Positions 1 through 64,000 of a DNA stretch of 64,000 nt are shown here, one piece after another. Position 1 is the first letter of the stretch, and each line of letters begins with the position of its first letter. The notes below the pieces were generated by a model. The model was given only the letters and a program-made list of their open reading frames with translations. It did not search any database and was not told the origin of the DNA. Made by a program: the position numbers and the translations under genes. Origin of the DNA: a virus; the IMG/VR virus record IMGVR_UViG_3300023179_000020; one strand, given 5' to 3'.

Positions 1-22
1 ATACAGTGCAGAAGCAGACAAT

Positions 23-349
23 GTGGCTAAAGAAATTCAAGAAGCAATTAATCGTCTCCATATGACTCGAGACAGCTGGGAATTTTATGAAGAACCAGCT
101 ATGGAACAACTTGAACAAAAATGGGGCAAAACAACATTTGAACACATACCCTACCAACATACAAAAGATGGTAAAGTGCTTACTTATGAATTAAAATCAA
201 AAACCGAAAAAGTAATTACAGAGGAAGATGAAAAACAGTACAAAGAAGAGTTCCGTAAAACACTCAAAGATGTCAGGAAAAAATACATCAAAGACAAGAT
301 TGCAGCGTATAAGTTTATTGGAAGAAACATGGACAAGTGGTGGGATTAA
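23..349 (+). CDS. hypothetical protein
   Basis: ORF track; co-oriented with neighbours. Confidence 0.6.
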   Translation: MAKEIQEAINRLHMTRDSWEFYEEPAMEQLEQKWGKTTFEHIPYQHTKDGKVLTYELKSKTEKVITEEDEKQYKEEFRKTLKDVRKKYIKDKIAAYKFIGRNMDKWWD

Positions 350-47015: not shown

Positions 47016-47813
47016 ATGATTAAACTAACTGATTTATTAAGAGAAGTTATAAATAACCCAAAAGCTATAATCATGGCTGGCGGTGCATCAGTTGGTAAAT
47101 CAACAGTACTAAAATCGTTACAACCCGTATTAAAAGGATTTGTAGACTTAAATGCTGACAAATATGTTGAAGATAAAGATTCTCCAATGTATGGTAATTT
47201 ATCTGCTGCCTCTGTTCAAATAAAAAAAACGGATTTACCTAACACTATTGACAACCAACAAAATCTTATTTACGACACTACAGCTTCTAATTTATCAACC
47301 CTTCAACCTACATTAGACATGTTAAATGATAAAGGGTATGAAATAATGATGATAATGGTTTATGCTCACCCCATAGTATCATTTTTAAGAAACTATAAAC
47401 GTGAACGTAAAGTACCAGCAGTTGGTGTTTTAGGAACATGGGTTAATGTTTATAATTTATTAGAAGAATATAAAAATATATTTGGTGATAATTTTGTATT
47501 AGTACATACACCTGCTAGTTCCGAAGAACAAACAGAAATAGATAATTTTGAATCTGCTTATCAACAGGGTACTTTAAAAGAATACTTCTCAGATCTATTA
47601 TCTTCAGGTCAATTTCAATCAACCTTTAGAAAAAGTGATGTTGGTTTATCACCTGAAGAATTAGAAAAACGAGAAAAAGACAGAGCCAAAACTAAAATTG
47701 TTTTAGAAAAAAACATAGATAAAATAGCTGATACATACGAGACTATTCAATCAAATCTAACCCCAGTTGATATGAAAGAATTGCCTAACATTGTTAAAAA
47801 TTTTGTTAGATGA
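47016..47813 (+). CDS. leader-bearing (MIKLTDLLRE) zeta-toxin/AAA_33-like P-loop kinase
   Basis: AGGASVGKS, NAD, IYDTT, RN..RER. Confidence 0.8.
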   Translation: MIKLTDLLREVINNPKAIIMAGGASVGKSTVLKSLQPVLKGFVDLNADKYVEDKDSPMYGNLSAASVQIKKTDLPNTIDNQQNLIYDTTASNLSTLQPTLDMLNDKGYEIMMIMVYAHPIVSFLRNYKRERKVPAVGVLGTWVNVYNLLEEYKNIFGDNFVLVHTPASSEEQTEIDNFESAYQQGTLKEYFSDLLSSGQFQSTFRKSDVGLSPEELEKREKDRAKTKIVLEKNIDKIADTYETIQSNLTPVDMKELPNIVKNFVR

Positions 47814-49618
47814 AATCATTAGTAAAATCACTTATAACACCGTTTTTAGCAGAAGTTGATATTCCTGTTCCAACTAAAACAATAGGTGTATTTGGAGGTG
47901 GGTTTCAACCACCAACAAAAGGCCATTTTGAAGTTGTTAAAAAAGCATTAGAATACCCTAACATAAACGAATTTAACATTTATGTTGGTACAGGTGGAGG
48001 CAGATCAGAAACAATTACCCAAGAACAATCAGTGGCAATTTGGAATATATATAAAAATTATTTACCTAGTATAGTAAATATTATTCCAACAGATAATCCA
48101 ATTACTTCAATTTATTCTTTAGCTAAAAATGAACCTGACACTCAAATCAAATGGTTTTTAGGGTCACGTGAAGGTAAAGAAGAAGATTTTGCTGATTTTG
48201 AAAAACGTACCAAATCTGCTTTAGGCAAAACAAATATTGAACCCATCAACATTATAACTTCAGATGGTATTAGTGGTACTAAAGCTAGAGCAGTATTAGA
48301 CGATAAAGAAAAATTATTTGCCTATTTGCCTGACATTGAAGAAACAGATAAAGAACAAATATACTCTATTCTACACCCAGTAGAAGAAGGAGAAGAAATA
48401 ACAAATTTTCTTGAAGAAAAAATTCAAGGTGATAGTATAGTTTGTGATAATTGTGGTTGGACATGGAAAATAGAGGATGGCGGAAACGATTTATTTATTT
48501 GTCACAAATGTGGACATGATAATACTCCTAAAAAAGAAACAACTAATTTCTTTGAACCATTACAAAACCAAGACATAGACATTAAAATATCTTCAGAACC
48601 TACTAGAGTTGACTATTATAAAGACCATATTAAAAATGTAGTACCATCTGATTTTAAAGTTGAAAAACATAAAGATAAAATAGTAGTTTCTAACATTTCT
48701 AAACCAGGACTAGAACATAACCCTGAATTTAAAGATAAATTAGTATCATTAACATTGTCTATGATAGATAATGGTATAAACATTGAACCGTTACCCGATT
48801 TAGTTTTTATAGAAGATGATAAGAAAAATGCAAACAACATATTAGGACGTACTGCTCATTATGACCCTAATAATAAATGTATTACTTTATACACTTATGG
48901 TCGTCATCCTAAAGACATATTACGTTCATACGCTCATGAAATGATTCATCACATGCAAAATCTTGAGGGTAGAATTCATGGTATTGAAGGACAAAACATA
49001 AATGAAGATGAATATCTAAAAGAATTAGAATTAGAAGCATATAGTAAAGGCAATATGTGTTTTAGAGGATGGGAAAATTCACTTAAAGAAAATATTAATG
49101 AATGGATTATTGATATTCCAAAATTTAATCAACCTAAAACATTTATAGATAATTTACGTGAATCTTTAAATGAAATTGTTTTGTCTAAAGAAAATGCAGT
49201 TGATATAGAGGGAAGTTTAACCGATGGACAATTTGTAGTAGGAGACCAAAAATATATTTATAAAATTAAAGAATTTCCAACACCTCCATATTACGACCCA
49301 GGTGTATTCTACAATATAGAATTTTATCCTGAAGGAAACATAAGTTCAGAACCGCAAGGAGGAAAAGAAAATTATGTAAAAATATTATCTACTATGTATA
49401 AAATAATAGTAGATTTTACTGAACAAGAAAAACCAAAATACATAGGTATTGCTTCTCTTGATAATGAAGGAAGCAAAAGTTACCATACAGTATATGCTAA
49501 TTTAACAGACAATAAATTTAACAGAATACCTGGATACTTTAGAAAAGATGTATCTTTAAAATTTGATGGGCCTAGGGGAAAAGGAAAAATGATAGTACTA
49601 AAAAGAAAAGATGATTAA
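47810..49618 (+). CDS. multidomain protein: (H/T)xGH nucleotidyltransferase + Zn ribbon + HExxH zincin-like + C-terminal domain
   Basis: GGFQPPTKGH, ISGT..R; CDNC/CHKC; HEMIHH. Confidence 0.8.
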   Translation: MKSLVKSLITPFLAEVDIPVPTKTIGVFGGGFQPPTKGHFEVVKKALEYPNINEFNIYVGTGGGRSETITQEQSVAIWNIYKNYLPSIVNIIPTDNPITSIYSLAKNEPDTQIKWFLGSREGKEEDFADFEKRTKSALGKTNIEPINIITSDGISGTKARAVLDDKEKLFAYLPDIEETDKEQIYSILHPVEEGEEITNFLEEKIQGDSIVCDNCGWTWKIEDGGNDLFICHKCGHDNTPKKETTNFFEPLQNQDIDIKISSEPTRVDYYKDHIKNVVPSDFKVEKHKDKIVVSNISKPGLEHNPEFKDKLVSLTLSMIDNGINIEPLPDLVFIEDDKKNANNILGRTAHYDPNNKCITLYTYGRHPKDILRSYAHEMIHHMQNLEGRIHGIEGQNINEDEYLKELELEAYSKGNMCFRGWENSLKENINEWIIDIPKFNQPKTFIDNLRESLNEIVLSKENAVDIEGSLTDGQFVVGDQKYIYKIKEFPTPPYYDPGVFYNIEFYPEGNISSEPQGGKENYVKILSTMYKIIVDFTEQEKPKYIGIASLDNEGSKSYHTVYANLTDNKFNRIPGYFRKDVSLKFDGPRGKGKMIVLKRKDD

Positions 49619-50180
49619 ATTAACTGATTTATTAAAAGAAGTAGAAGATCAAAAATATACTATCTATTGTGACATGGATGGAGTATTAGTAGACTTTGAT
49701 AAGGGTTATAAGGATTTAACAGGAATGTCTACTAAAAAAGCTAATACGTATCCTAAAATGTTTTTTTGGAGATTTTTTAGAAAGAAATTAAAAGAAAAAA
49801 AAATGGATGAAAAAGATTTTTGGGCTAATTTAGAATCTTATCCTGGAAAAGAAGAATTATGGTCCTATATATCACCATACAAACCAAATATACTTTCATC
49901 CCCATCAATAGACTTTAAACTCCCTCCAAATCAACAACTTGACCCAGAGTATAATGAAGCTATTCAGGGTAAAAAAGCATGGATTTCAAATAATTTAAAT
50001 AATGTAAATAAAGAAATTTTTGTTCCTGCCTCTCAAAAACAACAATTTTCTGGCGAAAATAAAATACTTATAGACGATAGAGAAGACAATATAGAACAAT
50101 GGAAAAGTAAGGGAGGAATAGGTATCCTTCACACTTCTGCTTCTGACACAATTAAACAATTAAAAGAATTAAAATTATGA
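49611..50180 (+). CDS. leader-bearing (MIKLTDLLKE) HAD 5'(3')-deoxyribonucleotidase-like phosphatase
   Basis: DMDGVLVDF, ILSS, K..W, LIDD...N...W...GG.GI. Confidence 0.85.
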   Translation: MIKLTDLLKEVEDQKYTIYCDMDGVLVDFDKGYKDLTGMSTKKANTYPKMFFWRFFRKKLKEKKMDEKDFWANLESYPGKEELWSYISPYKPNILSSPSIDFKLPPNQQLDPEYNEAIQGKKAWISNNLNNVNKEIFVPASQKQQFSGENKILIDDREDNIEQWKSKGGIGILHTSASDTIKQLKELKL

Positions 50181-50518
50181 AAAAATCACAATTACAACAG
50201 ATTATTAAAGAAGAAATTCAAAAAGTATTAAATGAAAACAAAGCTAATGATTTAAAAAATTTTATTAAAACAAATAAAGAAGAAGTAATAAACCAATTAA
50301 ATCAAAGAGAAAAAAAGAACAAAGACGCTAAAACCATTGATTTTAACATAATATATACTAAAGGAGACAAGGTTTATGCGGAGAGAGATTATCTTCCTAT
50401 TGGAGAAACAAATAAAGAAAATACAAGTCTAGATGAAATATCATTTAGTAAAACTACAGGTAAATACGAAATAACAGTATATGGACAAATATTGAAATAT
50501 TCAATATATAATATATAA
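50177..50518 (+). CDS. late protein with MKKSQLQQIIKEEIQKVLNE leader
   Basis: leader family B. Confidence 0.7.
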   Translation: MKKSQLQQIIKEEIQKVLNENKANDLKNFIKTNKEEVINQLNQREKKNKDAKTIDFNIIYTKGDKVYAERDYLPIGETNKENTSLDEISFSKTTGKYEITVYGQILKYSIYNI

Positions 50519-50549
50519 ATACTAATACAAGATTAGAAAAATTAGGATT

Positions 50550-51008
50550 ATGAATAAATATAGTTTAGTAAAATTAATGGAGAATGAAGAAGATGGAACA
50601 TCTAAAAGATTAATTCTTAAAAAAAATTTATTATTAATACCTAAAACAAAAACAGCAGAAGAATTTTTAAAAATTATTAATGATCCTAAAAATACAAAAG
50701 GAGTATTTGTAAAAATCAATACTGATTTATATAATGGGTATTTTGGTCCTCCTGGTCCTCCAAATGTAAAACAAAAATTAGAAAGAGAAAGAGGAGAACC
50801 ATTTCCTCCTAAAACCTCAGATAATATAGAAAAATTCAAAACTGGTTCAAAAGATTTAGGAGCCCAAATACAAGGAAAAAATATTATTTTTACTACTAAT
50901 GAATTTACTACTATTAATTCTATTAAAGGAGATTTAGAAAAAATACTTAAAAATGCTAATTTAGAAAAAGGAACAGATTATACTTTATTAGAAAAAGAAG
51001 CCATATAA
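50550..51008 (+). CDS. hypothetical late protein
   Basis: ORF; leader ending LMENEE. Confidence 0.65.
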   Translation: MNKYSLVKLMENEEDGTSKRLILKKNLLLIPKTKTAEEFLKIINDPKNTKGVFVKINTDLYNGYFGPPGPPNVKQKLERERGEPFPPKTSDNIEKFKTGSKDLGAQIQGKNIIFTTNEFTTINSIKGDLEKILKNANLEKGTDYTLLEKEAI

Positions 51009-51009
51009 T

Positions 51010-51579
51010 ATGCCAGAAAATGTTCTAAAAAAAGAGTTCCAACAAAAGGACGTACAACGCCTCCGTAACCTAATGACAGGTAAATATGGTGAAAAAACCA
51101 TTGTTGGAACAGGTTATACTAAACAACAAGAATTTCATGAAGAAGGTGAAATTTGGGAAGAAGATGGAAGACAATGGACCATCAAAAATGGTATCAAACA
51201 AAACATTACTAAACTGGATAAAGCAAAAGAATCAATCCATTTACCAATGTTTTGTCCTTGTTGTAGTAATTTAATGAAACCCCACCTTGATAAACGTTTT
51301 TATTTACAATATAAAAGGTGTTTTAATTGTCAGGTTGATTTTGAAACCGAATTAAAAATTAAAGGTTTATGGAACGATTATGAAAAACATATCATCAATT
51401 CAGACATTGATGGTATAACACAAGAATTTAATATATGGATGGACGAAGAAATAAACGAGTCTAATACATCATACATTACAGAAGCTGGAGACGTAGAACG
51501 TTGGGTAGGTTCTTCAAAACAAAAACTGTTAGAAAGTAAAGAAGAAACAATTAAATACTTACAAAGTTTAAAAAAATAA
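51010..51579 (+). CDS. Zn-finger hypothetical protein
   Basis: EGEIWEE.G..WTIKNG; CPCC...CFNC. Confidence 0.75.
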   Translation: MPENVLKKEFQQKDVQRLRNLMTGKYGEKTIVGTGYTKQQEFHEEGEIWEEDGRQWTIKNGIKQNITKLDKAKESIHLPMFCPCCSNLMKPHLDKRFYLQYKRCFNCQVDFETELKIKGLWNDYEKHIINSDIDGITQEFNIWMDEEINESNTSYITEAGDVERWVGSSKQKLLESKEETIKYLQSLKK

Positions 51580-51601
51580 ACCATATTTATTATAAAAATA
51601 T

Positions 51602-51964
51602 ATGGAATTTTCTAAGTTTATATCTTACCTATTTCATTCAAGAACCCAAACCCACATATTTCATTTACAAACACCTTCATTCGCCGAGCATATTGCTTTA
51701 CAAGCATACTATGAAGGAATTGTTCCTTTAATTGATGGTTTAGTAGAATCATATCAGGGTAAAAACGGTATAATTAATGATTATACCAATTTTAATTTAC
51801 AACAATACCAAGGTAAAGACCAAGTAATAGCATACTTGGATATGTTGTGTAAAGCAGCATACCAAGTGAGAGAAACAATTGAAGATAGTTACTTGCAGAA
51901 CCAAATTGATACTATAACTGAATTAATTAAATCAACTATTTACAAACTAACATACTTACAATAA
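51602..51964 (+). CDS. ferritin/Dps-like four-helix protein
   Basis: H..HLQT.SFAEH.AL..YY...D.LVESYQG...LQN.ID...YKL. Confidence 0.75.
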   Translation: MEFSKFISYLFHSRTQTHIFHLQTPSFAEHIALQAYYEGIVPLIDGLVESYQGKNGIINDYTNFNLQQYQGKDQVIAYLDMLCKAAYQVRETIEDSYLQNQIDTITELIKSTIYKLTYLQ

Positions 51965-51965
51965 C

Positions 51966-52214
51966 ATGGCATACAAATACAAATTAGTAAAAGAATTAGG
52001 GCCTCAAGACTTTGAAAAAGAAGAAGGTTATTATAAGGATCCTAAAACCGGAGAAATCAAACAAGGTTCTTTACAAACATCTTTAAATGCAAGAATGAAA
52101 TCTATGTTTGGTGAACCTAACCCTAATAAAGTTAAAAACACTTTTAAATCACCTGAAGAACAAGGTAAAGAAAAATTAACCCAAGAAGTTTTACGTAGAC
52201 TTAAAAACCGTTAA
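51966..52214 (+). CDS. hypothetical late protein
   Basis: ORF. Confidence 0.6.
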   Translation: MAYKYKLVKELGPQDFEKEEGYYKDPKTGEIKQGSLQTSLNARMKSMFGEPNPNKVKNTFKSPEEQGKEKLTQEVLRRLKNR

Positions 52215-52236
52215 TATTTATCACAAATCATTAATA

Positions 52237-52596
52237 ATGGAAAACAAATTACGTATCCTAATAAATCAACTTGTTAAAGAAGAGTTATCGATTTTTGAAA
52301 AAAAACTTAAAAAAGACGAAGAACCTCCTGTTGACGACGTTGAATTAGACCTTAGTGCTTCTGAAGAAACACCTGCTGAAGCTCCTTCTACCGATATGCC
52401 TTCAGTTGAGCCAAGCATGGACATGGGAGGTGGAGAATCAGTTGAAAAACGTATTGGGCAACACTTACAACAAGCATTAGACGCTGCTCGTGAAATGCCT
52501 GAAAGTGAAAATAAAAATAAATTGATAAGACAAATTGGAAACACAGCTTTATTCTTCCTGAAAACCCAAATTCCGGTTGATGGAGGACAAGCTTAA
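52237..52596 (+). CDS. acidic late protein (scaffold/core-like)
   Basis: leader family B; acidic linker. Confidence 0.65.
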   Translation: MENKLRILINQLVKEELSIFEKKLKKDEEPPVDDVELDLSASEETPAEAPSTDMPSVEPSMDMGGGESVEKRIGQHLQQALDAAREMPESENKNKLIRQIGNTALFFLKTQIPVDGGQA

Positions 52597-52619
52597 TATT
52601 AACTAAATAAATTAAATCT

Positions 52620-52793
52620 ATGAACAGTCAAGAGTTATTTGAACAAATGCAAGGTTTATGGGAAGAGTTTACAACTGAACATGCCAAAGCTTCTAAAGCA
52701 GCTCATAATAGAGCTCGCAAAGCAGCTGGCAATTTAAAAAAGTTGGTAACTGAGTACCGTAAAGCATCGGTTGCTGAAGACAAAGCAAAGTAA
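52620..52793 (+). CDS. Hc1/histone H1-like protein (57 aa, not in track)
   Basis: KAAHNRARKAAGNLKKLVTEYRKAS matches the Hc1 family pattern. Confidence 0.7.
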   Translation: MNSQELFEQMQGLWEEFTTEHAKASKAAHNRARKAAGNLKKLVTEYRKASVAEDKAK

Positions 52794-52813
52794 CCAAAAA
52801 CAACAATAAGTTA

Positions 52814-52834
52814 TAAGGGGGTAAAACCCCTTAT
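52814..52834 (+). terminator. hairpin/terminator
   Basis: taagggg/cccctta. Confidence 0.5.
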
Positions 52835-52854
52835 TCTTATTAAAAACACTTAAT

Positions 52855-53517
52855 ATGCCCTACGAAAGAAAAGGAAAATGCATATACAATAAAAAAACAG
52901 GCGAAAAAAAAGGCTGTTCATCCTCTGTGGGAAAAGCAAAATCTCATATGAGGGCTTTGTATGCTGCTGAAAAGGGTAGTATTAAAGAAGAAACAAGTAA
53001 AATTACACAAGCAATTCTAGACAGAGCAGAAGACATTTACCAGGCTATGAAAGCCTCTTCTGGTAGAAAAGCTGTAAAAAAATATGGAGCGGATGCTGAA
53101 GATGTGTTACGTGGTAGAGCAATGAACATAGCTAAAAAACAAGTCAAAATGAAAAACACAGACAGACTAAAAGAAATTATTAAAGATGCTTTAAGTGAGA
53201 AAAAAAATAAAAAATTTCCTGATTTAACAGGTGATGGTAAAGTAACTAAAGCTGATATTTTAAAGGGAAGAGGCGTTGAGTTAAAAGAAGAAGAACTTGA
53301 TTATGAAGGTGAAATGGCTAAATCTGAACTTCTTCGCATCATGCAAAATGCTCAAATGTTAATGTCTTCACTTGATGATGATACACAATTAGAAGCATGG
53401 GTACAAAGCAAAATTACTAAAGCAGCTGATTACTTAAATTCAGTAACCCAATACTTAACATATCAAAATACAAAACAAGGCCCTGTTGATGAAGAGGCCT
53501 ATTATTTAGACAAATAA
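52855..53517 (+). CDS. modular late protein
   Basis: short modules separated by IKEE/LSE/LKEE; DLTGDGKVT EF-hand-like; EGEMAK...WVQSKIT. Confidence 0.75.
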   Translation: MPYERKGKCIYNKKTGEKKGCSSSVGKAKSHMRALYAAEKGSIKEETSKITQAILDRAEDIYQAMKASSGRKAVKKYGADAEDVLRGRAMNIAKKQVKMKNTDRLKEIIKDALSEKKNKKFPDLTGDGKVTKADILKGRGVELKEEELDYEGEMAKSELLRIMQNAQMLMSSLDDDTQLEAWVQSKITKAADYLNSVTQYLTYQNTKQGPVDEEAYYLDK

Positions 53518-53518
53518 A

Positions 53519-54046
53519 ATGGCAAGTAAACAGGAACTTATAGATAAAATTCAAACAATAGCTAAACGTGTTTATTCTTCTAAAATAAAGGATAACACGT
53601 TAGGTGTTACTCCTAGTGACGTAAATTTTGATAAAGAAACATTTCCTGTTTTATCAAAGTTTCCAACTCTAAAACAAATTATTATAAATCTTTTAACAAA
53701 ACAATACGAAGATTTTATTTCTGACATTCATTGGGTTGCTCCTCGTCCTACTACTTTTAAAATCCTTTTAGCAAATGGACAGTATTTTTACTTAATATAC
53801 ACTGAACGTTCATGGATTGCTCAAGTTGAAGGTAAAAAGTACTATATGTTAAACTTAGACGAGGAAGAAAGAGCAGCTGAATCTATTGCTCGCATACTAA
53901 TGTATGGTAGTAAAAACAAAGAAGAAGAAACACCAGCCGAAGTACCAACAGGAGGAGAAACACCTGCTGACGAAACAGTACCTGAAGCACCCCCAACTGA
54001 AGAAACACCTCCAACAGAAGAAGTACCTGAAGAAGTTCCAGCATAA
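53519..54046 (+). CDS. hypothetical late protein with Glu/Pro tail
   Basis: WVAPRPTTF motif. Confidence 0.75.
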   Translation: MASKQELIDKIQTIAKRVYSSKIKDNTLGVTPSDVNFDKETFPVLSKFPTLKQIIINLLTKQYEDFISDIHWVAPRPTTFKILLANGQYFYLIYTERSWIAQVEGKKYYMLNLDEEERAAESIARILMYGSKNKEEETPAEVPTGGETPADETVPEAPPTEETPPTEEVPEEVPA

Positions 54047-54048
54047 TT

Positions 54049-55026
54049 ATGAATATGTTTGACAAATTTTTAAATAGTATTTCTCATAAATTCCCTAAAG
54101 GATATCCTGACATGAATAATGAACAGGATATTTTATTGTTAGAAACTTTAATAAATAAAGTGTTAGGTGAAAATGTAAAATTAAATGAAATGGGAATTTT
54201 AACTGAAAACGATAATTCATATGATGATTTAATAAAATTATCTTTAAAAGTTAAAACAATCCCAAAATGCCAAACTCCCTTAGTTGTAGGCAAATCATTT
54301 TCTTTAACAGGAAAAGACGCTAAAATATGGGCTAGTCTATACTCAATTAAACCTTTAAAAGCAGATGGTACACCAACCGCAGGTTCAGGAAATGGAGAAG
54401 TGGCTACATATTGGGCTTATCAACATAATATAAAACCAATAAGTACTCAAGATGGTAGAGGAGGAGACAATCCCGATTTAATTATTAGTGGAATTGGAGT
54501 TGAAGTTAAAGCATATGACACTTCAACTATTACTTTAGGTAAATTTAAATCTGATGGAGAAAGTGTAAGTTTATTAAATAGAGTATTTGGAGTTTTAACT
54601 TTATTTGGTGAAGAAGATACTAAAGCTAATGCAGGTGGATTTAAACCTCAAGATTTATTAAACAGTTTTACTATAATATCAAGTGTGTATAATAATAAAG
54701 AATTAAGATCTTTATCTGTTACTCAACCATTTTTTGTTAAAATAGATAATTTGTATAAAGAATTAGGATTAGAATCTAATCCCACCCCAAAACAAGCTAC
54801 TGTTGCTTTGTTACGTAAACTTTTATGGAGTAAATTAATTAAAAAACCTAATAAAAATCAAGAAGTAGGATACATTTTAAATGTTGCTCTTAACGGAGCA
54901 GGAGAATATACTAAAATTACTAAACAAATAATAGATAGTATACCTGATGATAGTTTTATAAACAACGGAGTTACAGTTAAATCTTCTGAAATACAAATGA
55001 ATTTTAATCAATTATTCAAATCATGA
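54049..55026 (+). CDS. leader module + PD-(D/E)XK nuclease-like domain
   Basis: FPKGYPDM module ending LNE/LTE; GNGE...PDL....VEVK. Confidence 0.55.
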   Translation: MNMFDKFLNSISHKFPKGYPDMNNEQDILLLETLINKVLGENVKLNEMGILTENDNSYDDLIKLSLKVKTIPKCQTPLVVGKSFSLTGKDAKIWASLYSIKPLKADGTPTAGSGNGEVATYWAYQHNIKPISTQDGRGGDNPDLIISGIGVEVKAYDTSTITLGKFKSDGESVSLLNRVFGVLTLFGEEDTKANAGGFKPQDLLNSFTIISSVYNNKELRSLSVTQPFFVKIDNLYKELGLESNPTPKQATVALLRKLLWSKLIKKPNKNQEVGYILNVALNGAGEYTKITKQIIDSIPDDSFINNGVTVKSSEIQMNFNQLFKS

Positions 55027-55703
55027 AACAACGCCTCCTAGAAATAATAAAAAAAGCATTAACAGAACAACCCAAAAAGAAAAAATGCGATTGTGGTTGT
55101 AATGAATGTACTAGTGCTCCTTTATTAAACGAATCTAAACAATACAACATGGCTATTTCTGAAAACATGAGATACCATTTAGACAACAAGATTCAAATCC
55201 ATGACAACATTTTCAGACCAGGCTCAAAATCACACATTGAACTGATTCATGAAGCTCGTTTGTTATGGAAAAAAGAAATTATTGAATTAAAAGAAACTGA
55301 TAAACATTTATTTGAAAACACAGATTTAGGTCGTTTTGGAATGTATGAAGGTGAGGTGGTTCCACTTGATTATCCAATGATGGAAATTGAAACTTTAACA
55401 GAAGCTGAATTAGAAGAAGAAAAGAAACAACCTGCTTTAGGTAAACCAAAACGTGGTGGTTCTAAAAAGTTTTATGTTTATGTTAAAGATCCTAAAACCA
55501 AGCGTATTAAAAAAGTATCATTTGGTATGGCAGGTGGTGGATTAAGAGCAAAACTTAATAATCCTAAAGCACGTCAAGCGTTTTCAAAAAGACATGATTG
55601 TCCTAATAAAAAAGACAGAACAAAGGCGTCGTACTGGAGTTGTGCATTGCCCCGTATGGCTAAGCTACTAGGGTTCAAAACCACTTACACAGGGTATTGG
55701 TAA
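55023..55703 (+). CDS. modular late protein
   Basis: LTE/LNE/LEE-separated modules; KKFYVYV...KVSFG...F..RH.C...YWSC. Confidence 0.75.
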   Translation: MKQRLLEIIKKALTEQPKKKKCDCGCNECTSAPLLNESKQYNMAISENMRYHLDNKIQIHDNIFRPGSKSHIELIHEARLLWKKEIIELKETDKHLFENTDLGRFGMYEGEVVPLDYPMMEIETLTEAELEEEKKQPALGKPKRGGSKKFYVYVKDPKTKRIKKVSFGMAGGGLRAKLNNPKARQAFSKRHDCPNKKDRTKASYWSCALPRMAKLLGFKTTYTGYW

Positions 55704-55745
55704 GGGAAGCTACACCCCCAATATTTATAATAAATTGGAGGGAAT

Positions 55746-56372
55746 ATGGCTTATGTTTATCTTATAACTAATGTCATCAACAATAAAAAATATATTGGAT
55801 CTTCTAGAAAGACTCAAGTTGATGAAAACTATTATGGTAGTGGAAAAGCATTAAAAAATGCTTTAAAAAAACATGGTAAAGAAAATTTCACTAGAGAAAT
55901 ATTATGGGAAGGTGAGGGAGATGCTCGAGTTATGGAAACATATTATTTGACAAAATTTAACGCAGCTGGAAATTCAATGTTTTATAATATGACTAATGAT
56001 GCTAGAGGAAATAATCTTCATAAAGAAGAAACTAAAAAGACAGTTAGTGAAAAACTAACAGGACGTAAATTCTCAAAAGAAACTTGCGAAAAAATATCTA
56101 AAGCCAAAACAGGTTCAACAACATCTAAAAAAGGTAAACCCGATGGCCCTAAACCTAATGTATCTAAAGCTCATAAAGGCAGAATAAGTCCTAATAAAGG
56201 AAAAGGTAACCCTGTAGCTTTATATAAAACATCAGGTGAATACATCCAAACATATCCTAGCTATCATGATTTAGCTCTTGATCTTCAAATTAACCCAGAA
56301 ACAGTAAGATGTCAACTTATTGGGAAAGCTCAAACTATTAAGAATAAGCAATATAGGGCTCAATATGTATAA
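55746..56372 (+). CDS. GIY-YIG homing endonuclease (SegA-like, NUMOD3)
   Basis: YVYLITN...KYIG, YYGSG, F.REIL, YN; ETKK.VSE and ETCEKISKA repeats. Confidence 0.88.
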   Translation: MAYVYLITNVINNKKYIGSSRKTQVDENYYGSGKALKNALKKHGKENFTREILWEGEGDARVMETYYLTKFNAAGNSMFYNMTNDARGNNLHKEETKKTVSEKLTGRKFSKETCEKISKAKTGSTTSKKGKPDGPKPNVSKAHKGRISPNKGKGNPVALYKTSGEYIQTYPSYHDLALDLQINPETVRCQLIGKAQTIKNKQYRAQYV

Positions 56373-56376
56373 TCAT

Positions 56377-56760
56377 ATGAAACTAACACACATACTCCTT
56401 CAACTTCTTTTAGAAAAAAAAGAAGACAGATGTAAACGTATTGCTGATCGCAAATACGATAAACCATCTGCTTATAAATCAGGTGCAATTGTTAGATGCC
56501 GTAAGGGTGAAATTTGGAAAGATTTAAAAGAGGATGAATTAACTGAAAAACAAAAAGAAACCCTCCGCACCTGGTTCAAACGTAAAGGTGCTCCTGGTAA
56601 AACAGGTGGGTGGGTAGACTGTAATACTTGTAGAGACGGTAAATGTAAGCCTTGTGGTAGAAAAGAAGGAGAAAAACGTGCTAAATACCCTTCATGTCGC
56701 CCCACACCATCTCAATGTAAAACACCTGGCAAAGGCAAAAAATGGGGAAAAACAAAATGA
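56377..56760 (+). CDS. Cys/Lys-rich modular late protein
   Basis: MKLTHILLQLLLE leader; SAYKSG and L..WF...WVD...CGR...YP.CRP modules split by LKE/LTE. Confidence 0.7.
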   Translation: MKLTHILLQLLLEKKEDRCKRIADRKYDKPSAYKSGAIVRCRKGEIWKDLKEDELTEKQKETLRTWFKRKGAPGKTGGWVDCNTCRDGKCKPCGRKEGEKRAKYPSCRPTPSQCKTPGKGKKWGKTK

Positions 56761-58052
56761 TTAAACTAACTAACATATTAAAAGAAATATTATTAACTGA
56801 ACTTAACAAGCAACAGTTAGATAGTATAGCTAAAGCATTAGGTGCTGAACGTACTAGTGAATTTGATAGTAAATTAAATTCATTAAATGCTAAGGGTATG
56901 ACTTACCCTGATATTTTAAAACAAGTTAAAGATGGTGTATCTCAAGGAAAATCTCCTGAAGAAATTTTTAGTAGCTTATCATCAACAGTAGGTAAATCTT
57001 CTAAAGATCTAGAATCAGATTTTGAAACTATAATTGATAATGAAAATATTATAGTACAAGTACCTCATACCCACGCTGCATCTCGCAAATTAGGCTTATC
57101 TACCTACGCTTATAGAGTATGTAAAGATGGCAGCAAAGATTCAGCCTGGTGTACCACTTATAAAATCCCAGATCATTTTAGAATTTATTACCATGATCAA
57201 AACAAAACTCTCTATTATATAAAAGTTAAATCTCCTGAAATAATACAACAATTAAAAGACAAGGGTTTGGCATCTTTAGTTGTATCAGCAGTTGTTGTTA
57301 ATGACAAAAATAATATAAGTGTTATATTTGATGGAAAAGATAAAGATATCCCATCTAATTGGTATCCCGCGTATCTAAAAATATTAGGACTTGATAAATC
57401 AATATTTGTTAATAAACGCTCTAAAAAAGAACGAGATTTAGCATTAAGTAGCGCTCAACTTGAACAGATGAAATATTATATTAAAAATGGAAGTAAAGGT
57501 CCACTAGAGATAGTAAAACTAGACTCTGAACTTCCTAGTGATTTAACTTTAGTTGGAGGTGATTTAAAATTAATTGCTTCTAAAATAACTAAATTACCTG
57601 ATAATTTAGTAGTTAAAGGTAAACTTATTATATCCCAATGTCCAAATATAACAACCATTCCTGAGGGTATAAAATATAAATCTCTAGCGTTATTTAGATG
57701 TCCTGCTATAACCTCTATTTCTAAACCTAAAAATAAAATAGAAGATTTAACTATAGATGATTGTCCCTCATTTACTGAACTTCCAAAAGGTATAAAAGCA
57801 AAATATATAAGAATTCAACAATGCCCACAATTCTCTAAATTACCTGATAATCTTACAAGTTCAACTGTAGATATTCGAAGTTTAAAAGTAAGTGAGATGC
57901 CTAATAATCTTAAAGTATATAGATTTCTATTAGCTGATACTCCTTTAGCTAAAAAATATGAATATGATGGGAATCAAATTATTAAGGCAATTCAAGATAA
58001 AGGTGGTGAAATAGTAAATTTTTCTTCTTTTAAACTTAATATAGTGATGTAA
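56757..58052 (+). CDS. leader-bearing (MIKLTNILKE) protein with WCT module and LRR-like repeats
   Basis: SAWCT; LP..L.V.G.L repeats; start moved to ATG 56757. Confidence 0.75.
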   Translation: MIKLTNILKEILLTELNKQQLDSIAKALGAERTSEFDSKLNSLNAKGMTYPDILKQVKDGVSQGKSPEEIFSSLSSTVGKSSKDLESDFETIIDNENIIVQVPHTHAASRKLGLSTYAYRVCKDGSKDSAWCTTYKIPDHFRIYYHDQNKTLYYIKVKSPEIIQQLKDKGLASLVVSAVVVNDKNNISVIFDGKDKDIPSNWYPAYLKILGLDKSIFVNKRSKKERDLALSSAQLEQMKYYIKNGSKGPLEIVKLDSELPSDLTLVGGDLKLIASKITKLPDNLVVKGKLIISQCPNITTIPEGIKYKSLALFRCPAITSISKPKNKIEDLTIDDCPSFTELPKGIKAKYIRIQQCPQFSKLPDNLTSSTVDIRSLKVSEMPNNLKVYRFLLADTPLAKKYEYDGNQIIKAIQDKGGEIVNFSSFKLNIVM

Positions 58053-58309
58053 TGCTCCCTTATAAAGATCTTGAGATAACAGATAAATATATTATTCGTG
58101 AATTTAGCGAAAATATAGATCCTATTGAACTAAAATGGCATCGTGATAGAGAAGATCGTTTAATAGAAATAATAGGAGAAACAGATTGGATGGTACAACT
58201 TGAAAATCAACTACCAACTTCTTTAAATCAACCCATATTTATACCAAAAGGTGAATGGCATATAGTTATTAAAGGAAATGGTACTTTAATTCTTAAAATT
58301 AATAAGTAG
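58052..58309 (+). CDS. cupin-like protein
   Basis: WHRD.E.R...IPKGEWH..IKG. Confidence 0.75.
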   Translation: MLPYKDLEITDKYIIREFSENIDPIELKWHRDREDRLIEIIGETDWMVQLENQLPTSLNQPIFIPKGEWHIVIKGNGTLILKINK

Positions 58310-60930
58310 TGAAAAATATACATAAGTTTATAGCATACGTTGTTTATAATTGGGGTTATCCTTTAAATGAAGATGAAATAAAGCTTGATAGAAACAGACA
58401 AAAGTTTTTTGATAAATTTAAAGTAGATGCTAATGATTTAAACATTAATATTACAGATGAACAATTAAAAACATACATTCAACGTTTTGACCAGTTAAAA
58501 AATTCATCTAAAGTTACTGAAAAGGACTTACATAAATACTCTTTATCTAAATTAATACAATTAGTTACTTCATCTGCTGGAGCAGACATGCCTGAACAAG
58601 CAGATATTACTCCTGACGTTGTTTATAATAATGATAATAATACTATTGTAATTTATAATGGTAGTAAAGAAGGCAACTGTATTAATTTTGGTCAAGGTGA
58701 AAGATGGTGCATAACTAGAGGCTCTTATGGTAATTACAGGTACGATGCTGATAGAGGCTTTCCTACATTTTATCTTGCTAAAAATACTAATTTACCTAAT
58801 ACTGATAAATTAAGTTTTGTTGCTATACAGGTTAGAGATACATCTGATGAAAATAAAAGGTACGTTTATACTAATAGACAGAATAGCCCATATGAGTCTA
58901 ATGCTATGTCTTTTAATAAATTAGTATCTGAGGTTCCTTGGCTTAGTGAAGTGCCTAATCTTAGTAATGTTTTAAGATATATCCCTTTAACTAGTAATGA
59001 GAAAATAACTCAAACATATAAAAACAAAGCTGCTACTTATAGAGAATGGACTCAATTCTCATTTGAAATGAAAAAACAATATCTAGTAGCCAGAAAAAAC
59101 CAATCAGAATTTTTTTCAGATATTAGTGATAATGAATTTGTAAGTACTTACCTTCCAGATTATCCACAAATAGCTGAATTTATTGCTTTAAACAATGATA
59201 TTATTGAAGATGAAGTTTTATTAAAATATTTAGATAAATTCTCTAACCAAGATAGAAGATCTATCATGGCTAACATGAGAACAAATGTGTCTTTAAAATA
59301 TTTAGATAAACAAACATTTTCATTTGACATTAAAAAATTATTAGTTAAATTAAATAAATGGAATCTTAGTAACAACGAAAGAATATATGTTACTAAAAAT
59401 GGTGAAGCTATAATTTTATTAACTTTAGACGACGATTTAAAAGTAGGAGTATACACAGAAGATGCTGATTATCCAAATATTAAACTTAATAAACGTACTT
59501 CTAAATTTTTAGCAGACTATCCCGAAATAGACACTATTCCTTTTAGGTATCTTTTAAAATTAGCATCTCAAGAAGCTATTGATAAATTAATTATCAATAA
59601 GGTTATAGAAAAAGCTAAAGAAGACCCAAACTCGGCTATAATAGTAAAAGACACAGAAGATGGACAAATATTAGTTGATTCTAATAGTTTTAATTCTTAT
59701 AAAATTAAAGATGATTCTATAACACCTATACCTTTTGATAGTGAAGAAGTTCAAAGAGTCCTTAATTCTGAAGGATCAGAAGAAAATGAAGGTATTCAAA
59801 ACAACATTTTACAATTATTTGGAAGTGGTATTCCTAACACTATAGACAAAACTACATTTGTTAATCTATTAAAAAATATTCCAATTAACAATAGAATAAC
59901 AACTGTAAGAAATATAGATTATGTAGTTATGTTAGATGATGAAAATGAAGAAATATTATTAATAGATAATAGGGAATTATCAACATCATTTAGAGCTCAA
60001 TTTCATTATAATCTTAATAGAACAAATTGGAGAGAATCACCGGGTTTAACTAATTTTGCTAGTAGTCTTGAAGTTCTTAGAGAATATTTTGAATATGCAA
60101 GAACAAAAGGATGGGCATATCAAGGTGATGAAATTATAGGTGCTATAAATAGTCAATATAATCGAAGTTATAAACAAAACATAATAGCCGCTAATCCACC
60201 ATTAGGTGAAAGATGGATGGCTGTAGTAGTAGAAGACAAATACATTTTATTAAACCGAATTAACCCTAGAAACAGTAAATTTATATCCAACACTTCAGGT
60301 AGATTAATCAATTATAATTTTCCTCCACGTGCTGCTGCTCAATACATTGGAGGACAAGCAAATGCTGCAACAACACCACCTGGTGCTGAAGAAAGAGAAT
60401 TAGCCCCTCTTAGAAGACCAGGAAGACCAGCTGGTGGTGGAACACCTAGACAAGCTCCAGCCGCCGCCGCGGCAAATCCAGATGTTACAGCCATGATTGA
60501 ACAATTTGGATTAACAGCAGGCTTTAATACCTTACCCCAAAATGTACGAAATGTAATATCTTCAGGACAAATCCTTGGTAGATTTGCAGGTGATAGAGGT
60601 GCATCTCGTAGAAACAATTTATTAAGACAATATGGAGGACAAGTTTCAAATACAATTGAATCAGGTAATTCTAAACTTTATATTATTCGTTTAAGAAGTG
60701 GAGCATACATAGGATCAGCAGTTTTTCAACCTGGTAATCAACATTACATAGTTACTACAAATTCTTCCTTTAGAATACCAAGTCCCGATGATCTTGTAAC
60801 ACAACTAAGAACACGTAACATAAACGAAAATGCAAAAGTAATGTTAGCGTTGCATGCTGAAGCAGATCCTGAATCAATGAATGAATTGAGACAAAAATTA
60901 ACTAATATTTATAAAAAACCAACATCATGA
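58309..60930 (+). CDS. large late protein with WCI module
   Basis: ERWCIT; N-terminal LNE, C-terminal INE; RRPGRP. Confidence 0.75.
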   Translation: MKNIHKFIAYVVYNWGYPLNEDEIKLDRNRQKFFDKFKVDANDLNINITDEQLKTYIQRFDQLKNSSKVTEKDLHKYSLSKLIQLVTSSAGADMPEQADITPDVVYNNDNNTIVIYNGSKEGNCINFGQGERWCITRGSYGNYRYDADRGFPTFYLAKNTNLPNTDKLSFVAIQVRDTSDENKRYVYTNRQNSPYESNAMSFNKLVSEVPWLSEVPNLSNVLRYIPLTSNEKITQTYKNKAATYREWTQFSFEMKKQYLVARKNQSEFFSDISDNEFVSTYLPDYPQIAEFIALNNDIIEDEVLLKYLDKFSNQDRRSIMANMRTNVSLKYLDKQTFSFDIKKLLVKLNKWNLSNNERIYVTKNGEAIILLTLDDDLKVGVYTEDADYPNIKLNKRTSKFLADYPEIDTIPFRYLLKLASQEAIDKLIINKVIEKAKEDPNSAIIVKDTEDGQILVDSNSFNSYKIKDDSITPIPFDSEEVQRVLNSEGSEENEGIQNNILQLFGSGIPNTIDKTTFVNLLKNIPINNRITTVRNIDYVVMLDDENEEILLIDNRELSTSFRAQFHYNLNRTNWRESPGLTNFASSLEVLREYFEYARTKGWAYQGDEIIGAINSQYNRSYKQNIIAANPPLGERWMAVVVEDKYILLNRINPRNSKFISNTSGRLINYNFPPRAAAQYIGGQANAATTPPGAEERELAPLRRPGRPAGGGTPRQAPAAAAANPDVTAMIEQFGLTAGFNTLPQNVRNVISSGQILGRFAGDRGASRRNNLLRQYGGQVSNTIESGNSKLYIIRLRSGAYIGSAVFQPGNQHYIVTTNSSFRIPSPDDLVTQLRTRNINENAKVMLALHAEADPESMNELRQKLTNIYKKPTS

Positions 60931-61196
60931 AAATTAACGAACTAAAACAAATCATCAGAGAAGAAATTGAAAAAGTATTAGCTGAAGCACCAATACGTGA
61001 AGAGGAAACACCAACACGTAAAAAGGAAGCACCAGTAAAACCAACAACTACACCTTCTCAACCAACAACTACACCTTCTCGAACAAAAAGACCTGGACCT
61101 GGTATAAAAGAAAAACCAAAAGCTGAAAAAACAGCTGAAAAAATAGCTGAAAAAATAGGAAATAGGTATAGCAAAATGCTTAAAAATAAAAAGTAA
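60927..61196 (+). CDS. late protein with MKINELKQIIREEIEKVLAE leader, Pro/Thr-rich
   Basis: leader family B; PTTTPS x2. Confidence 0.7.
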   Translation: MKINELKQIIREEIEKVLAEAPIREEETPTRKKEAPVKPTTTPSQPTTTPSRTKRPGPGIKEKPKAEKTAEKIAEKIGNRYSKMLKNKK

Positions 61197-62779
61197 TGCC
61201 TAAGTATCAAGACATATTTGATCCTGAAATCATAGCTAAGTTAAAGGCTAAATCCTCTGAAAAAATTAGAGGAAAAAGTCTTATGCAAATGATGAGATCT
61301 TCTCAAGAATTATTAAGTCTTGTAGTTTCAATTGAAGCCCCATATAAATCTCAATTATCACAATTAGCTATTGATATAGTTAAAGATCATTATCCTACTT
61401 TAGTAGAGGATAATATTGATGTAGAAGCTAGAATAGTTAGTAATGTTACTCTTGAAGAATATAACCCATATGAAAAACAAAGACGCATCTCTAATGCTTT
61501 AGTACAAGGAGCGTCAGTTGAAGAACTATATTCTTTATTTGAAAAAGAAAGTGTTATTCAACAAATACGTTCTATTAATTCAACATTATATGACAAGTAT
61601 AATGAATTAATGAAACAAGTTTTTGACATATATAATGATGATCAAGCCATAAACATGATGCTTGCTGCCATAGCTTCAGGCCAAAATTTAGCTGGTGGTA
61701 AATCTCAAATTGTAACTGAAAATGAAGGTCCTAAAATCATTGCTGAAGCAATTTGTTTCCCAATGTTGGTCCATGAAATTTTAAAAGGTTATTGGAGTAT
61801 TTTAGCACAAACTGGATTAAAAGGTAGTGATGAAGAAGCACAAGCTACAGTTGATAGAGTTGATAGATTAGAATATGAACCTGAAGATATTCGTTATGGT
61901 CCAATAATATTTAATAAATTAAAAACCATATATAAAGCATTTACTTCCCCAGATGTTGATGTAAGAACACTTGTTGTTTTTTATACAGCTATTCTTCAAA
62001 TGGAACCAGATGAATTTTTTTCATTTATAAGTAATGTTGTAGGTGATAGACCTTTAAGTGAAGACCAAATTGCTTGGATTGAAAATGAATTAGAAGACAT
62101 ACAAGTGTATTTGCAAACTATAGATGCTGAAAGAGCTATGAGTTCTTTTTCTAATAATGATGAAGATAATATAGACGATGTAGATTTGTCTGATTTAGGA
62201 TTAAATGAAAAAAAACGTCCATACAAAGACCTTGAAACAACCGACAAATACATTCTTCGTGAATTCAACGAAAACATTGACCCAATCGAATTAAAGTGGC
62301 ATCGTGATAAAGAAAACCGTATAATAGAAATTGTAGGTAAAACAAATTGGAAAATTCAACTTGAAAACCAGTTACCAGTTTCTATAAATCAACCCATTAG
62401 AATACCTAAAGGTGAATGGCACCGTTTAATTAAAGGTGACGGAACCTTAACTTTAAAAATATTAAAAGAAGAATCAACCCAATACAACATGGAAGGTATT
62501 CTATACACAGATACTAGAGAACGTCCTCAAAAAGATATTCTTTCAGACATTCGTTCTTTACCTGGTGTAACAATTGTGTCTTCTAAAGACATAAACCCAA
62601 ATGTGTATGCTACTAATAACCCAAATTACGGTACTATTATAAAAATTAAAGTTGATCCACACCCATATCCTTCTGGATTTAAAGATGAAGATTTACAACA
62701 ATTATTACAAGACATTAGAGCTGTTAAAGGTGTAAGAAATTTCAAATTAAACCAAAAAGTTGAAAAGAAAACAGTATAA
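61196..62779 (+). CDS. multidomain protein with internal cupin copy
   Basis: FPMLVHEILKG domain + LNE + cupin + LKEE + C-terminal domain. Confidence 0.8.
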   Translation: MPKYQDIFDPEIIAKLKAKSSEKIRGKSLMQMMRSSQELLSLVVSIEAPYKSQLSQLAIDIVKDHYPTLVEDNIDVEARIVSNVTLEEYNPYEKQRRISNALVQGASVEELYSLFEKESVIQQIRSINSTLYDKYNELMKQVFDIYNDDQAINMMLAAIASGQNLAGGKSQIVTENEGPKIIAEAICFPMLVHEILKGYWSILAQTGLKGSDEEAQATVDRVDRLEYEPEDIRYGPIIFNKLKTIYKAFTSPDVDVRTLVVFYTAILQMEPDEFFSFISNVVGDRPLSEDQIAWIENELEDIQVYLQTIDAERAMSSFSNNDEDNIDDVDLSDLGLNEKKRPYKDLETTDKYILREFNENIDPIELKWHRDKENRIIEIVGKTNWKIQLENQLPVSINQPIRIPKGEWHRLIKGDGTLTLKILKEESTQYNMEGILYTDTRERPQKDILSDIRSLPGVTIVSSKDINPNVYATNNPNYGTIIKIKVDPHPYPSGFKDEDLQQLLQDIRAVKGVRNFKLNQKVEKKTV

Positions 62780-62781
62780 CT

Positions 62782-63564
62782 ATGAATAAAGAATTTTTAA
62801 GAATGCAACAATTAGCTGGTATTATTACTGAAAGTGAGTATAAAACTAATACTTTATTTGAAGGAGAAGAAGCTGAAACTATTGATCAAGTCCCTAACAA
62901 TATATTAAACATCATATCTAAAGCTACTGCCCAACCAGTTGAAAAAATTAAACAATTAGCTAAACAAGAAACTTCCACCCCTGAGGATAAAGTTGATGAA
63001 TCAGCTGTTTTAACTGCTGTTACAATAGCTGGATTAATTCCTTTAGCTATGGATGCTATAGGAGGTGTATCAAATTGGGTTTCTCGTAACACTGGAAAAA
63101 ATGAAGCTGAAATAGCACAATTAAAAAAATTTAATGAAAAAATTAAAGAAAAAGAAGAATTAATAAAGAATTTAGATAAAAAAGATGCTAAAAGTGAAAT
63201 GAGAGAAAGAGAACTTTTAAATAAATTAAAAAAACAAAGAGATGATATGTGGGGTTCTGATTTTGGGCAATGGATGAAAAAAAAAGCTCATGGGTTACAT
63301 CATGCTTATACTTGGCCTATTAGAACCTTATTAAAATGGGTTGGATTTATAACAGGAAATAAAAAATTAAAAAATAAAGAATTTAGAGAAAAATTAGCTA
63401 ATATACTATATGCTATTACGATGACTGGAATAGCTGGGGTTGGTATTCTTTCCCATTTAGGACATCTTACAGGAGTAGCCCCAGTAGCTATGACTATAGC
63501 AGATGGAGTTAAAGGAGGAAAAAGTATAGGTGAAATAGTTAATTCTATTGGTTTAGCAATTTAA
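62782..63564 (+). CDS. late protein with RMQQLAGIITE leader and hydrophobic helices
   Basis: leader family C. Confidence 0.75.
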   Translation: MNKEFLRMQQLAGIITESEYKTNTLFEGEEAETIDQVPNNILNIISKATAQPVEKIKQLAKQETSTPEDKVDESAVLTAVTIAGLIPLAMDAIGGVSNWVSRNTGKNEAEIAQLKKFNEKIKEKEELIKNLDKKDAKSEMRERELLNKLKKQRDDMWGSDFGQWMKKKAHGLHHAYTWPIRTLLKWVGFITGNKKLKNKEFREKLANILYAITMTGIAGVGILSHLGHLTGVAPVAMTIADGVKGGKSIGEIVNSIGLAI

Positions 63565-63597: not shown

Positions 63598-64000
63598 ATG
63601 AATATACTTGAAATTAAAAAAATGCAAAAAATTGCCGGAGTAATAACTGAAGGTGAATATAGAATGTTTATTGAGGCAATTCATGATGAAACTTTAGATG
63701 AAGGGTGGAAAAACTGGTTGTTAGGTGGTTTAATTACATTATCAACTTTAGGAGGAATAGGTAAAGTATATCAAATGGATCAACAAGCAAAAGCTGATAA
63801 AGCTAAACAAGTTGAATATTACAATAATGTTCTTAGTAACGAAGTTACTAAAATGAATGATGATGATCTTTTTAAACTAGGATCAGACATTAGTGATAAA
63901 ACAGGTGAAATGAAAGGTAATTCCAATGCTGACTCAGATACATATAAAAAAATGATGATAAATTACGCTAAGGATTATATTAAGAATCATCCAAACAAAT
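63598..64000 (+). CDS. late protein with KMQKIAGVITE leader (3' truncated by window)
   Basis: ATG 63598 after ATATTTAT; open to window end. Confidence 0.7.
   Translation, partial: MNILEIKKMQKIAGVITEGEYRMFIEAIHDETLDEGWKNWLLGGLITLSTLGGIGKVYQMDQQAKADKAKQVEYYNNVLSNEVTKMNDDDLFKLGSDISDKTGEMKGNSNADSDTYKKMMINYAKDYIKNHPNK

Follow-up and report, generated by a model that had tools for sequence, protein, structure and literature searches.

What joins, and what might take apart, the unrelated domains that are strung along the large open reading frames (ORFs) of one phage gene cluster? The question is raised by a 64,000-nucleotide stretch of IMG/VR virus record IMGVR_UViG_3300023179_000020 (hereafter the window), which belongs to an uncultured T4-like phage from water, has 30% GC and is coding on a single strand. 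An earlier note, made from the letters of the window, had proposed that domain boundaries in six ORFs (47810, 52855, 54049, 55023, 56377 and 61196, named after their first nucleotide) coincide with the tripeptide L/I-x-E, and that these ORFs encode polyproteins cut by the prohead protease inside the capsid; the ORFs and motif positions that it listed are all as it described them. Comparison with related sequences indicates that the cluster at 47016-63564 probably encodes cleavable capsid cargo, with L/I-x-E joints cut by a gp21-type protease. Coordinates are those of the window unless a locus (L number) is named, and the cluster features located below lie on the + strand.

In the 602-aa product of ORF 47810, an NMNAT/PPAT-fold transferase is followed by a Zn ribbon, an HExxH zincin and a GNAT-like domain (domains 1 to 4). 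Domain 1 (aa 22-192; 47873..48385) stands behind an N-terminal leader (47810..47854) that ends in LAE (aa 13-15) and was recognized from the sequence and from family leader statistics. The nucleotidyltransferase fold of this domain was found with Foldseek (E 6e-7, target-normalized TM-score (TMt) 0.79) and VIA (Z 16.2 over 22..192, root-mean-square deviation 2.6 over 154 aa), and a TKGH within residues 30-40 fits the (T/H)xGH motif of the NMNAT/PPAT (HxGH) fold. A profile search against PDB sequences recovered the transferase domain only. Domain 2 (aa 204-241; 48419..48532) is a CxxC...CxxC zinc ribbon that behaves as a separate movable module within the family. Domain 3 (aa 300-426; 48707..49087) is zincin-like, with H376, E377 and H380 nearly invariant and faint Pfam matches only (Peptidase_M91; MPTase-PolyVal, E 0.23). 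Zn ribbon and zincin are putative labels, taken only from the CxxC...CxxC and HExxH motifs. Domain 4 (aa 445-601; 49142..49612), a C-terminal alpha/beta domain, is GNAT-like (VIA Z 8.3 to the RimI N-domain) and is found at other positions across the family.

Structurally, the AlphaFold2 (AF2) model of this protein (predicted local distance difference test (pLDDT) 81.7) contains linkers with pLDDT < 50 at 193-203, 241-264, 296-298 and 428-442, and motifs lie in or at two of them. Junction 1 (48380..48418) comprises VEE 191-193 and LEE 201-203 around linker 193-203; at this position [LIV]xE is present in 79 of 87 distinct family junctions (z 16.4). Junction 3 (49082..49102) comprises LKE 425-427 and INE 429-431 at the start of linker 428-442. 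Here 120 homology ends (BLAST-type breakpoints) gather at residue 427, and across the family [LI]xE follows the zincin end in 54 of 62 distinct cases. A further motif is LNE 453-455.

The family allows the joints to be counted. A full HMMER search with ORF 47810 returned 2,967 cluster representatives (~3,000 protein clusters), proteins of 175-1421 aa in which domains D1 to D4 are permuted (D1-D4-D3-D2, D1-D3-D2, D4-D3) and mixed with other domains. Permuted architectures misalign, so motif conservation read column by column from alignment A2 cannot be relied on. Junctions were scored in 18-aa windows, with similar junctions removed and random windows of the same proteins as background. [LI]xE occurs in 56-57% of 265-305 distinct junction windows versus 19-20% of random ones (z ~16.5), and the enrichment persists with novel adjacencies only. 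At projected internal junctions, [LI]xE reaches 3.1-4.3 times background, compared with 0.3-0.9 for [LI]xD, ~1 for [LI]xK and 1.2-1.4 for any Glu. Relative to random windows, [LI]xK, [LI]xQ and [KR]xE are flat and [LI]xD is depleted, while the S/A/G-x-E pattern of phiKZ and SPN3US, scored as [AGS]xE, stays at 0.7-0.9 times background (z ~-2). Every domain type contributes to the enrichment: the zincin (start z 11.6, end z 14.0), D4 (z 4.0 and 5.7), the Zn ribbon (start z 6.9) and D1 (end z 16.4 for [LIV]xE, with the boundary set at the end of the last helix). The junction consensus is L (76%) or I, then N/K/T/E, then E, with N, G, S or K as the next residue; after interior motifs the next residue is I, L or F. 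Leaders ending in [LIV]xE at residues 7-22 head 103 of 148 family members, against 33±5 in random windows.

Two further features of the family concern its ends and its spacers. Some members begin with a different domain of ~300 aa, as does gp088 of Flavobacterium phage vB_FspM_immuto. Two short spacer peptides, each ending in [LIV]xE, recur between unrelated modules in family representatives and in loci L087 (15181-15651) and L029 (6056-6523). The core is of the DPFGLNAYA type in the first and PYGSGF/Y in the second; both peptides could serve as docking signals or protease-recognition helices.

ORF 61196 carries the same joint on a different, zincin-free scaffold. Its conserved helical carrier domain (aa 1-317; 61196..62146; delimited in the AF2 model and present in 187 related viral loci) has no convincing fold match in PDB, and Atlas matches to restriction endonucleases (0.83) were rejected as noise. 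Within the carrier, LEE 86-88 (61451-61459) has an invariant E88 in a low-pLDDT loop of variable length (84-95); it is a possible extra processing site, use of which would remove an 88-aa N-terminal part. The sole long disordered linker of the model, 318-339, ends with the junction LNE 336-338 (62201..62209). E338 is invariant in 36 sequences inside this otherwise hypervariable, low-pLDDT linker, and [LIV]xE is kept in 34 of 35. The cupin cargo module follows (aa 339-422; 62210..62461), a small beta-barrel matched by BFVD cupins at TMt 0.88 (40% identity) and 0.81, PDB cupins reaching TMt ~0.5 only. Next is LKE 423-425 (62462..62470), where 78 homology ends and 58 homology starts gather and which is kept by all homologues possessing the C-domain. 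The C-domain itself (aa 426-527; 62471..62776) is a ferredoxin-like alpha/beta domain, with weak Foldseek matches to EF1B-alpha, S6 and NikR-C (TMt 0.6-0.68).

Carrier homologues display four architectures (carrier+cupin+C-domain, carrier+C-domain, carrier+cupin, and carrier+other insert+C-domain), the cupin being present or absent accordingly, and these break exactly at G-[LIV]-x-E ahead of the module and at I-[LI]-x-E ahead of the C-domain. Minimal carrier proteins of ~335 aa end at or just short of L-D-E. Among 38 distinct homologues from viral contigs, [LIV]xE stands at the joint in 23 of the 23 that are extended by at least 20 aa versus 5 of the 15 that are not (Fisher 6e-6, uncorrected for kinship). 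The cargo behind the joint may be the cupin, a DUF5872-like module, the phrog_7595 module, an RMQQLAG-type tag or a hydrophobic segment. The codons of the joint differ (TTA, CTA, TTG, ATT or GTA; GAA or GAG), so its conservation acts at the protein level. Both comparisons suggested by the earlier note, motif frequency at predicted boundaries against interiors and the position of domain gain or loss in orthologues, point the same way: the motif is enriched at boundaries far above chance across the families (z ~16, with flat controls), and the breaks fall on it.

Genomic comparison further reveals that modules move between neighboring ORFs. Cupin, NT5C, DUF5872-like and phrog_7595 modules alternate between a separate ORF, with a leader ending in L-x-E, and a domain fused downstream of an internal L-x-E. 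ORFs 47016, 47810, 49611, 50177, 50550, 55023, 56377, 56757 and 60927 begin with leaders that are ~10-20 aa long and have L/I-x-E as their last residues. The cupin has a stand-alone copy (58052..58309, homologous to aa 339-422 of ORF 61196) and is standalone, terminal or internal in related phages. The NT5C-type 5'-nucleotidase (49611..50180; Pfam NT5C, E 1.5e-6) has a leader ending in LKE (aa 8-10); elsewhere NT5C is the last module of 42 of 150 polyproteins, mostly with an internal peptide ending in L-x-E ahead of it. The immuto polyprotein gp088 ends where others run on, and NT5C is then gp087, with its own leader.

Leader exchange is seen in ORF 54049, whose 53-aa leader module (54049..54207) ends in LGE41, LNE47 and LTE53. 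Its first 41-53 residues are common to four unrelated C-terminal domains (L007, L008, L010, L012), homology breaks at these three motifs (41, 47, 54), and the leader also exists as a free-standing 57-aa ORF in L053. The C-terminal domain of this ORF had been labeled a nuclease, a label that found no confirmation: the domain shows a PD...ExK-like motif only, has no Pfam or PHROG match, and its nearest named Atlas clusters, restriction enzymes, score 0.85, a chance level. Of the other labels given beforehand, nucleotidyltransferase and cupin are borne out by fold (Z 16.2 and TM-score 0.88, respectively), and Zn ribbon and zincin at the level of motif.

ORF 55023 (226 aa; 55023..55703) consists of a leader to LTE15, LNE 37, a joint at LTE125-127/LEE130-132 and a basic phrog_7595 module, and contains 10 motifs versus 2.9 expected from shuffles. 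The leader is missing in L019, L022 and L029, L010 has a ~70-aa insert at the LTE/LEE joint, and in L035 the phrog_7595 module is joined to the carrier. ORF 56377 (56377..56760), a DUF5872-like basic protein, has a leader to LLE13 and internal LKE50-52/LTE55-57; in L029 and immuto gp084, a spacer peptide separates this LKE from the site after it, and in L045 and L048 the module is joined to the carrier behind LDE. In the 220-aa ORF 52855 (52855..53517), IKE 43-45, LSE 113-115 and LKE 143-145 lie near module breakpoints: homologues lack aa 1-49 or have a ~75-aa insert behind the LKE/LSE region, and in immuto the homologues of ORFs 52855 and 53519 are joined as one 841-aa protein. At the upstream end of the cluster, ORF 47016 (47016..47813) encodes a Zeta-toxin-family kinase (Pfam Zeta_toxin, E 1.5e-13) with a 10-aa leader ending in LRE (nucleotides 47037-47045).

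The cluster is placed between baseplate and head genes. Tail and baseplate genes stand upstream (baseplate wedge match in ORF 31526-33400). On the same contig (86 kb), 3' of the window, are TerL, a T4-type portal and ORFs of 284, 167 and 493 aa, followed further along by Peptidase_S77, a 365-aa acidic scaffold-like protein and a Gp23-family capsid protein. The Peptidase_S77 gene (PF03420, gp21-type prohead protease; L005 12841-13449) lies between the T4 portal and Gp23, and each of the four complete related genomes (4/4) encodes one S77 protease. [LI]xE is more frequent than in shuffles for the scaffold (22 versus 12, z 3.5), the 284-aa protein (z 6.3), the S77 protease (z 3.4) and the 493-aa core protein (z 2.9), and shows no excess over shuffles in TerL (z 0.1) or portal (z 0.6). 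The head-core ORF adjoining the protease (L005 11357-12838) measures 493 aa here and 421 aa in the close relative L006, where a 708-aa ORF also stands in the place of the cluster upstream of an oxidoreductase in L005.

The nearest cultured phage is immuto, with 53% capsid protein identity; the literature searched yielded no virion proteome for it. Megablast of the region against phage records gave no match, and Pfam and PHROGs searches with the large ORFs gave nearly none. The T4 late-promoter motif TATAAATA was uninformative, its 28 matches (17 expected) being scattered over both strands and not placed ahead of cargo genes.

Junction enrichment, breakpoints and the presence of an S77 gene support the polyprotein reading by comparison, and the following mechanism may be proposed. 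Cargo would have two routes into the assembling prohead: with a short helical leader of its own, N-terminal and closed by L/I-x-E, or as a fusion C-terminal to the carrier (ORF 61196 N-domain) or to a further cargo domain. The phage's own gp21-type (Peptidase_S77) prohead protease would recognize the L/I(V)-x-E at each joint and cut after Glu inside the prohead, so that leaders and spacer peptides are removed and discarded. The proteins set free would include the NMNAT-fold transferase, Zn ribbon, zincin, GNAT-like domain, cupin, NT5C nucleotidase and small basic DNA-binding-like proteins, and the enzymes among them would remain with the DNA and be delivered at infection. One targeting element would load several domains in fixed proportion. 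If an in-frame L-x-E joint is the sole requirement, modules could be gained, lost, permuted, split into ORFs and fused. The discrimination of Glu over Asp, the polar P1' residue and the varying codons argue for a recognition site at the protein level. We infer encapsidation, cleavage and the identity of the cutting protease from this combination of features.

Several observations weigh against this proposal. The window on its own gives a weak signal: totals of [LI]xE per protein are at shuffle level (11 versus 9.1 expected in ORF 47810, 9 versus 8.8 in ORF 61196), with a clear excess only in ORFs 55023, 56377 and 60927, and the caution of the earlier note that L-x-E is common by chance was justified. 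About half of the motif instances lie inside folded domains, five of them in the AF2 model of ORF 47810, so not every L-x-E can be a site, and two boundaries of that protein, the linker 241-264 and the zincin start at ~300, have no motif. Family representatives are not phylogenetically independent, and boundaries based on high-scoring segment pairs (HSPs) are accurate to ~10 aa only. When fusions and fissions were scored without supervision across every ORF of 80 loci, z was 3.9-5.2, a signal diluted by wrong ORF starts. Raw BLAST breakpoints of the window proteins cluster weakly (22 of 67 near a motif versus 14.4 expected), since HSP ends within diverged domains add noise. Some NMNAT-fold family members begin leaderless, at the transferase domain itself; these, and those that start differently, may be unpackaged or differently targeted versions.

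The leaderless variants also favor the best-surviving alternative, under which L-x-E marks uncleaved helical linkers or module-end caps that tolerate recombination, and the proteins work uncut as multidomain enzymes, perhaps in the cytoplasm. Among phage auxiliary enzymes NMNAT and NT5C are frequent and typically cytoplasmic, and a mild junction enrichment of the reversed motif Ex[LI] (z ~6) hints at a general helical E/L bias. Against this alternative stand the strict preference for Glu over Asp, the flat [LI]xK and [LI]xQ, the freely permuted domain order, the N-terminal leaders ending in the same motif, and a joint motif that is present with a C-terminal extension and mostly absent without one. 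The variable codons show that DNA microhomology does not explain the conservation either. We consider this alternative unlikely.

Less probable still is that the embedded HExxH zincin, rather than the prohead protease, cuts the junctions in cis or in trans. A zincin with nearly invariant H, E and H is present in most members of the ORF 47810 family. Zincins usually prefer a hydrophobic P1', which counts against them here. Glu at P1 with a polar P1' fits gp21-type proteases (PMC12991175). Embedded peptidases have been predicted to release the domains of polyvalent proteins (Iyer et al. 2017, PMC5512222), but the match of this zincin to MPTase-PolyVal is faint, at the E-value given above. The same junction motif is kept in the zincin-free ORF 61196 carrier family and in the leaders of single-domain ORFs, and self-processing cannot explain joints conserved where there is no zincin; the motif enrichment is, moreover, common to scaffold and core proteins. 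Chance coincidence, for which the frequency of L-x-E in Lys/Glu/Leu/Ile-rich proteins at 30% GC, the per-protein counts and a weak within-window linker test (6 of 20 motifs in linkers versus ~2.4 expected) might speak, is scarcely credible and at family level is refuted by the junction statistics (z 11-16.5 with matched controls), the invariant E338 and the breakpoints exactly on the motif.

Cleavage by the phage's gp21-type protease, the preferred reading, would bring together elements already known: capsid targeting and gp21 cleavage from T4, processing at several sites from phiKZ-like phages, and the polyvalent proteins. T4 gp21 is reported to cut after Glu in I/LxE, a specificity equal to the joint motif here, and more weakly at other xxE (PMC12991175). 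T4 internal proteins, otherwise highly diverse, are targeted by ~10-aa propeptides that gp21 removes (PMC9026906, PMC3012670). Like T4 IPI-III and Alt, the ORFs described here have a short N-terminal propeptide ending in L/I-x-E, hypervariable cargo behind a conserved leader, a location among late/structural genes and a gp21-family protease in the genome; the likeness of the leaders to the T4 capsid-targeting sequence is one of pattern. Unlike the T4 internal proteins, many cargoes here are chains of several domains in permuted order, with putative sites inside the chain and spacer peptides that recur, a conserved ~335-aa carrier takes C-terminal cargo, and the cargo consists largely of enzymes (NMNAT fold, NT5C, zincin, Zeta-type kinase).

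Polyvalent proteins (Iyer, Burroughs, Anand, de Souza and Aravind 2017, PMC5512222) of phages and conjugative elements are described as mosaic chains in which 2 to 15 effector domains of unrelated kinds follow one another. Phages encode them close to virion genes, and the prediction is that they are packaged and then freed by proteolysis. The proteins of this cluster likewise combine several unrelated effector domains in mosaic order near virion genes, and share with polyvalent proteins the zincin, the GNAT-like domain, the Zeta kinase and, weakly, ART-PolyVal. The hallmark Pfam models remain below their thresholds (MPTase-PolyVal, E 0.23; ART-PolyVal, 21-26 bits (25.7) against a cut-off of 31.2); Zeta_toxin is matched, but in the separate ORF 47016. 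The part of the polyvalent-protein account drawn on here proposes release by peptidases within the chain and defines no inter-domain site, whereas the present joints carry a definite motif that fits a trans-acting gp21-type protease. In phiKZ, 201phi2-1 and SPN3US, much as proposed here, a distant gp21 homologue processes many head, inner-body and ejection proteins behind the Glu of a three-residue motif, at several sites in each. Their motif is S/A/G-x-E, unlike the joints here, and the cuts mostly strip long propeptides and are not described as separating shuffled enzyme modules. The literature searched contained no paper combining capsid targeting with polyvalent proteins, none in which shuffled cargo modules are joined by a defined protease motif and none describing a carrier with C-terminal cargo.

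The remaining genes of the cluster and its surroundings add observations of their own. A basic 57-aa ORF (52620-52793), with a precomputed Pfam match to Hc1 (histone H1-like) and copies in 15 loci, is a candidate DNA-condensing internal protein. A GIY-YIG/NUMOD homing endonuclease (55746-56372) sits between two cargo genes and looks recently mobile, because its copies are 97-99% identical and confined to a few related loci (L015, L022). The 431-aa ORF at 56757-58052 has a MIKLT-type leader (LKE 8-10, LTE 13-15), leucine-rich-repeat-like periodic motifs in its C-terminal half and only weak relatives among the loci compared. The 873-aa ORF at 58309-60930 starts with GTG, carries LNE 19-21 and, around residue 700, a low-complexity stretch rich in Pro, Ala and Gly, and is kept in > 50 related loci. 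The leaders of ORFs 62782 (62782-62832) and 63598 (63598-63650) contain an RMQ/KMQ-x-LAG/IAG motif followed by ITE; this motif is also C-terminal in the 365-aa scaffold-like protein (L005 14794-15891) and internal behind the carrier LDE in L050.

Should cleavage at the joints prove real, the proteins delivered by capsids would become predictable from sequence alone among thousands of proteins of uncultured phages. The polyvalent proteins would then acquire a concrete mode of processing, and the T4 'expression-packaging-processing' principle would turn out to be an evolutionary mechanism that is natural and in wide use. Flavobacterium phage vB_FspM_immuto, a cultured relative, shares the architecture. 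The NMNAT-fold transferase, NT5C nucleotidase, zincin, Zeta-type kinase and cupin are candidate injected enzymes for early counter-defense. More tentatively, and with slightly less confidence than doubt, a large aquatic clade of T4-like phages on Bacteroidota may possess a cargo code readable from sequence, spanning ~3,000 protein clusters and made up of a leader or carrier together with L-x-E joints cut by the prohead protease. By this code any enzyme could be loaded, co-packaged stoichiometrically in one string and set free as a separate protein on injection, including pre-packaged NAD-pathway-like enzymes that might counter host defenses from the first second of infection.

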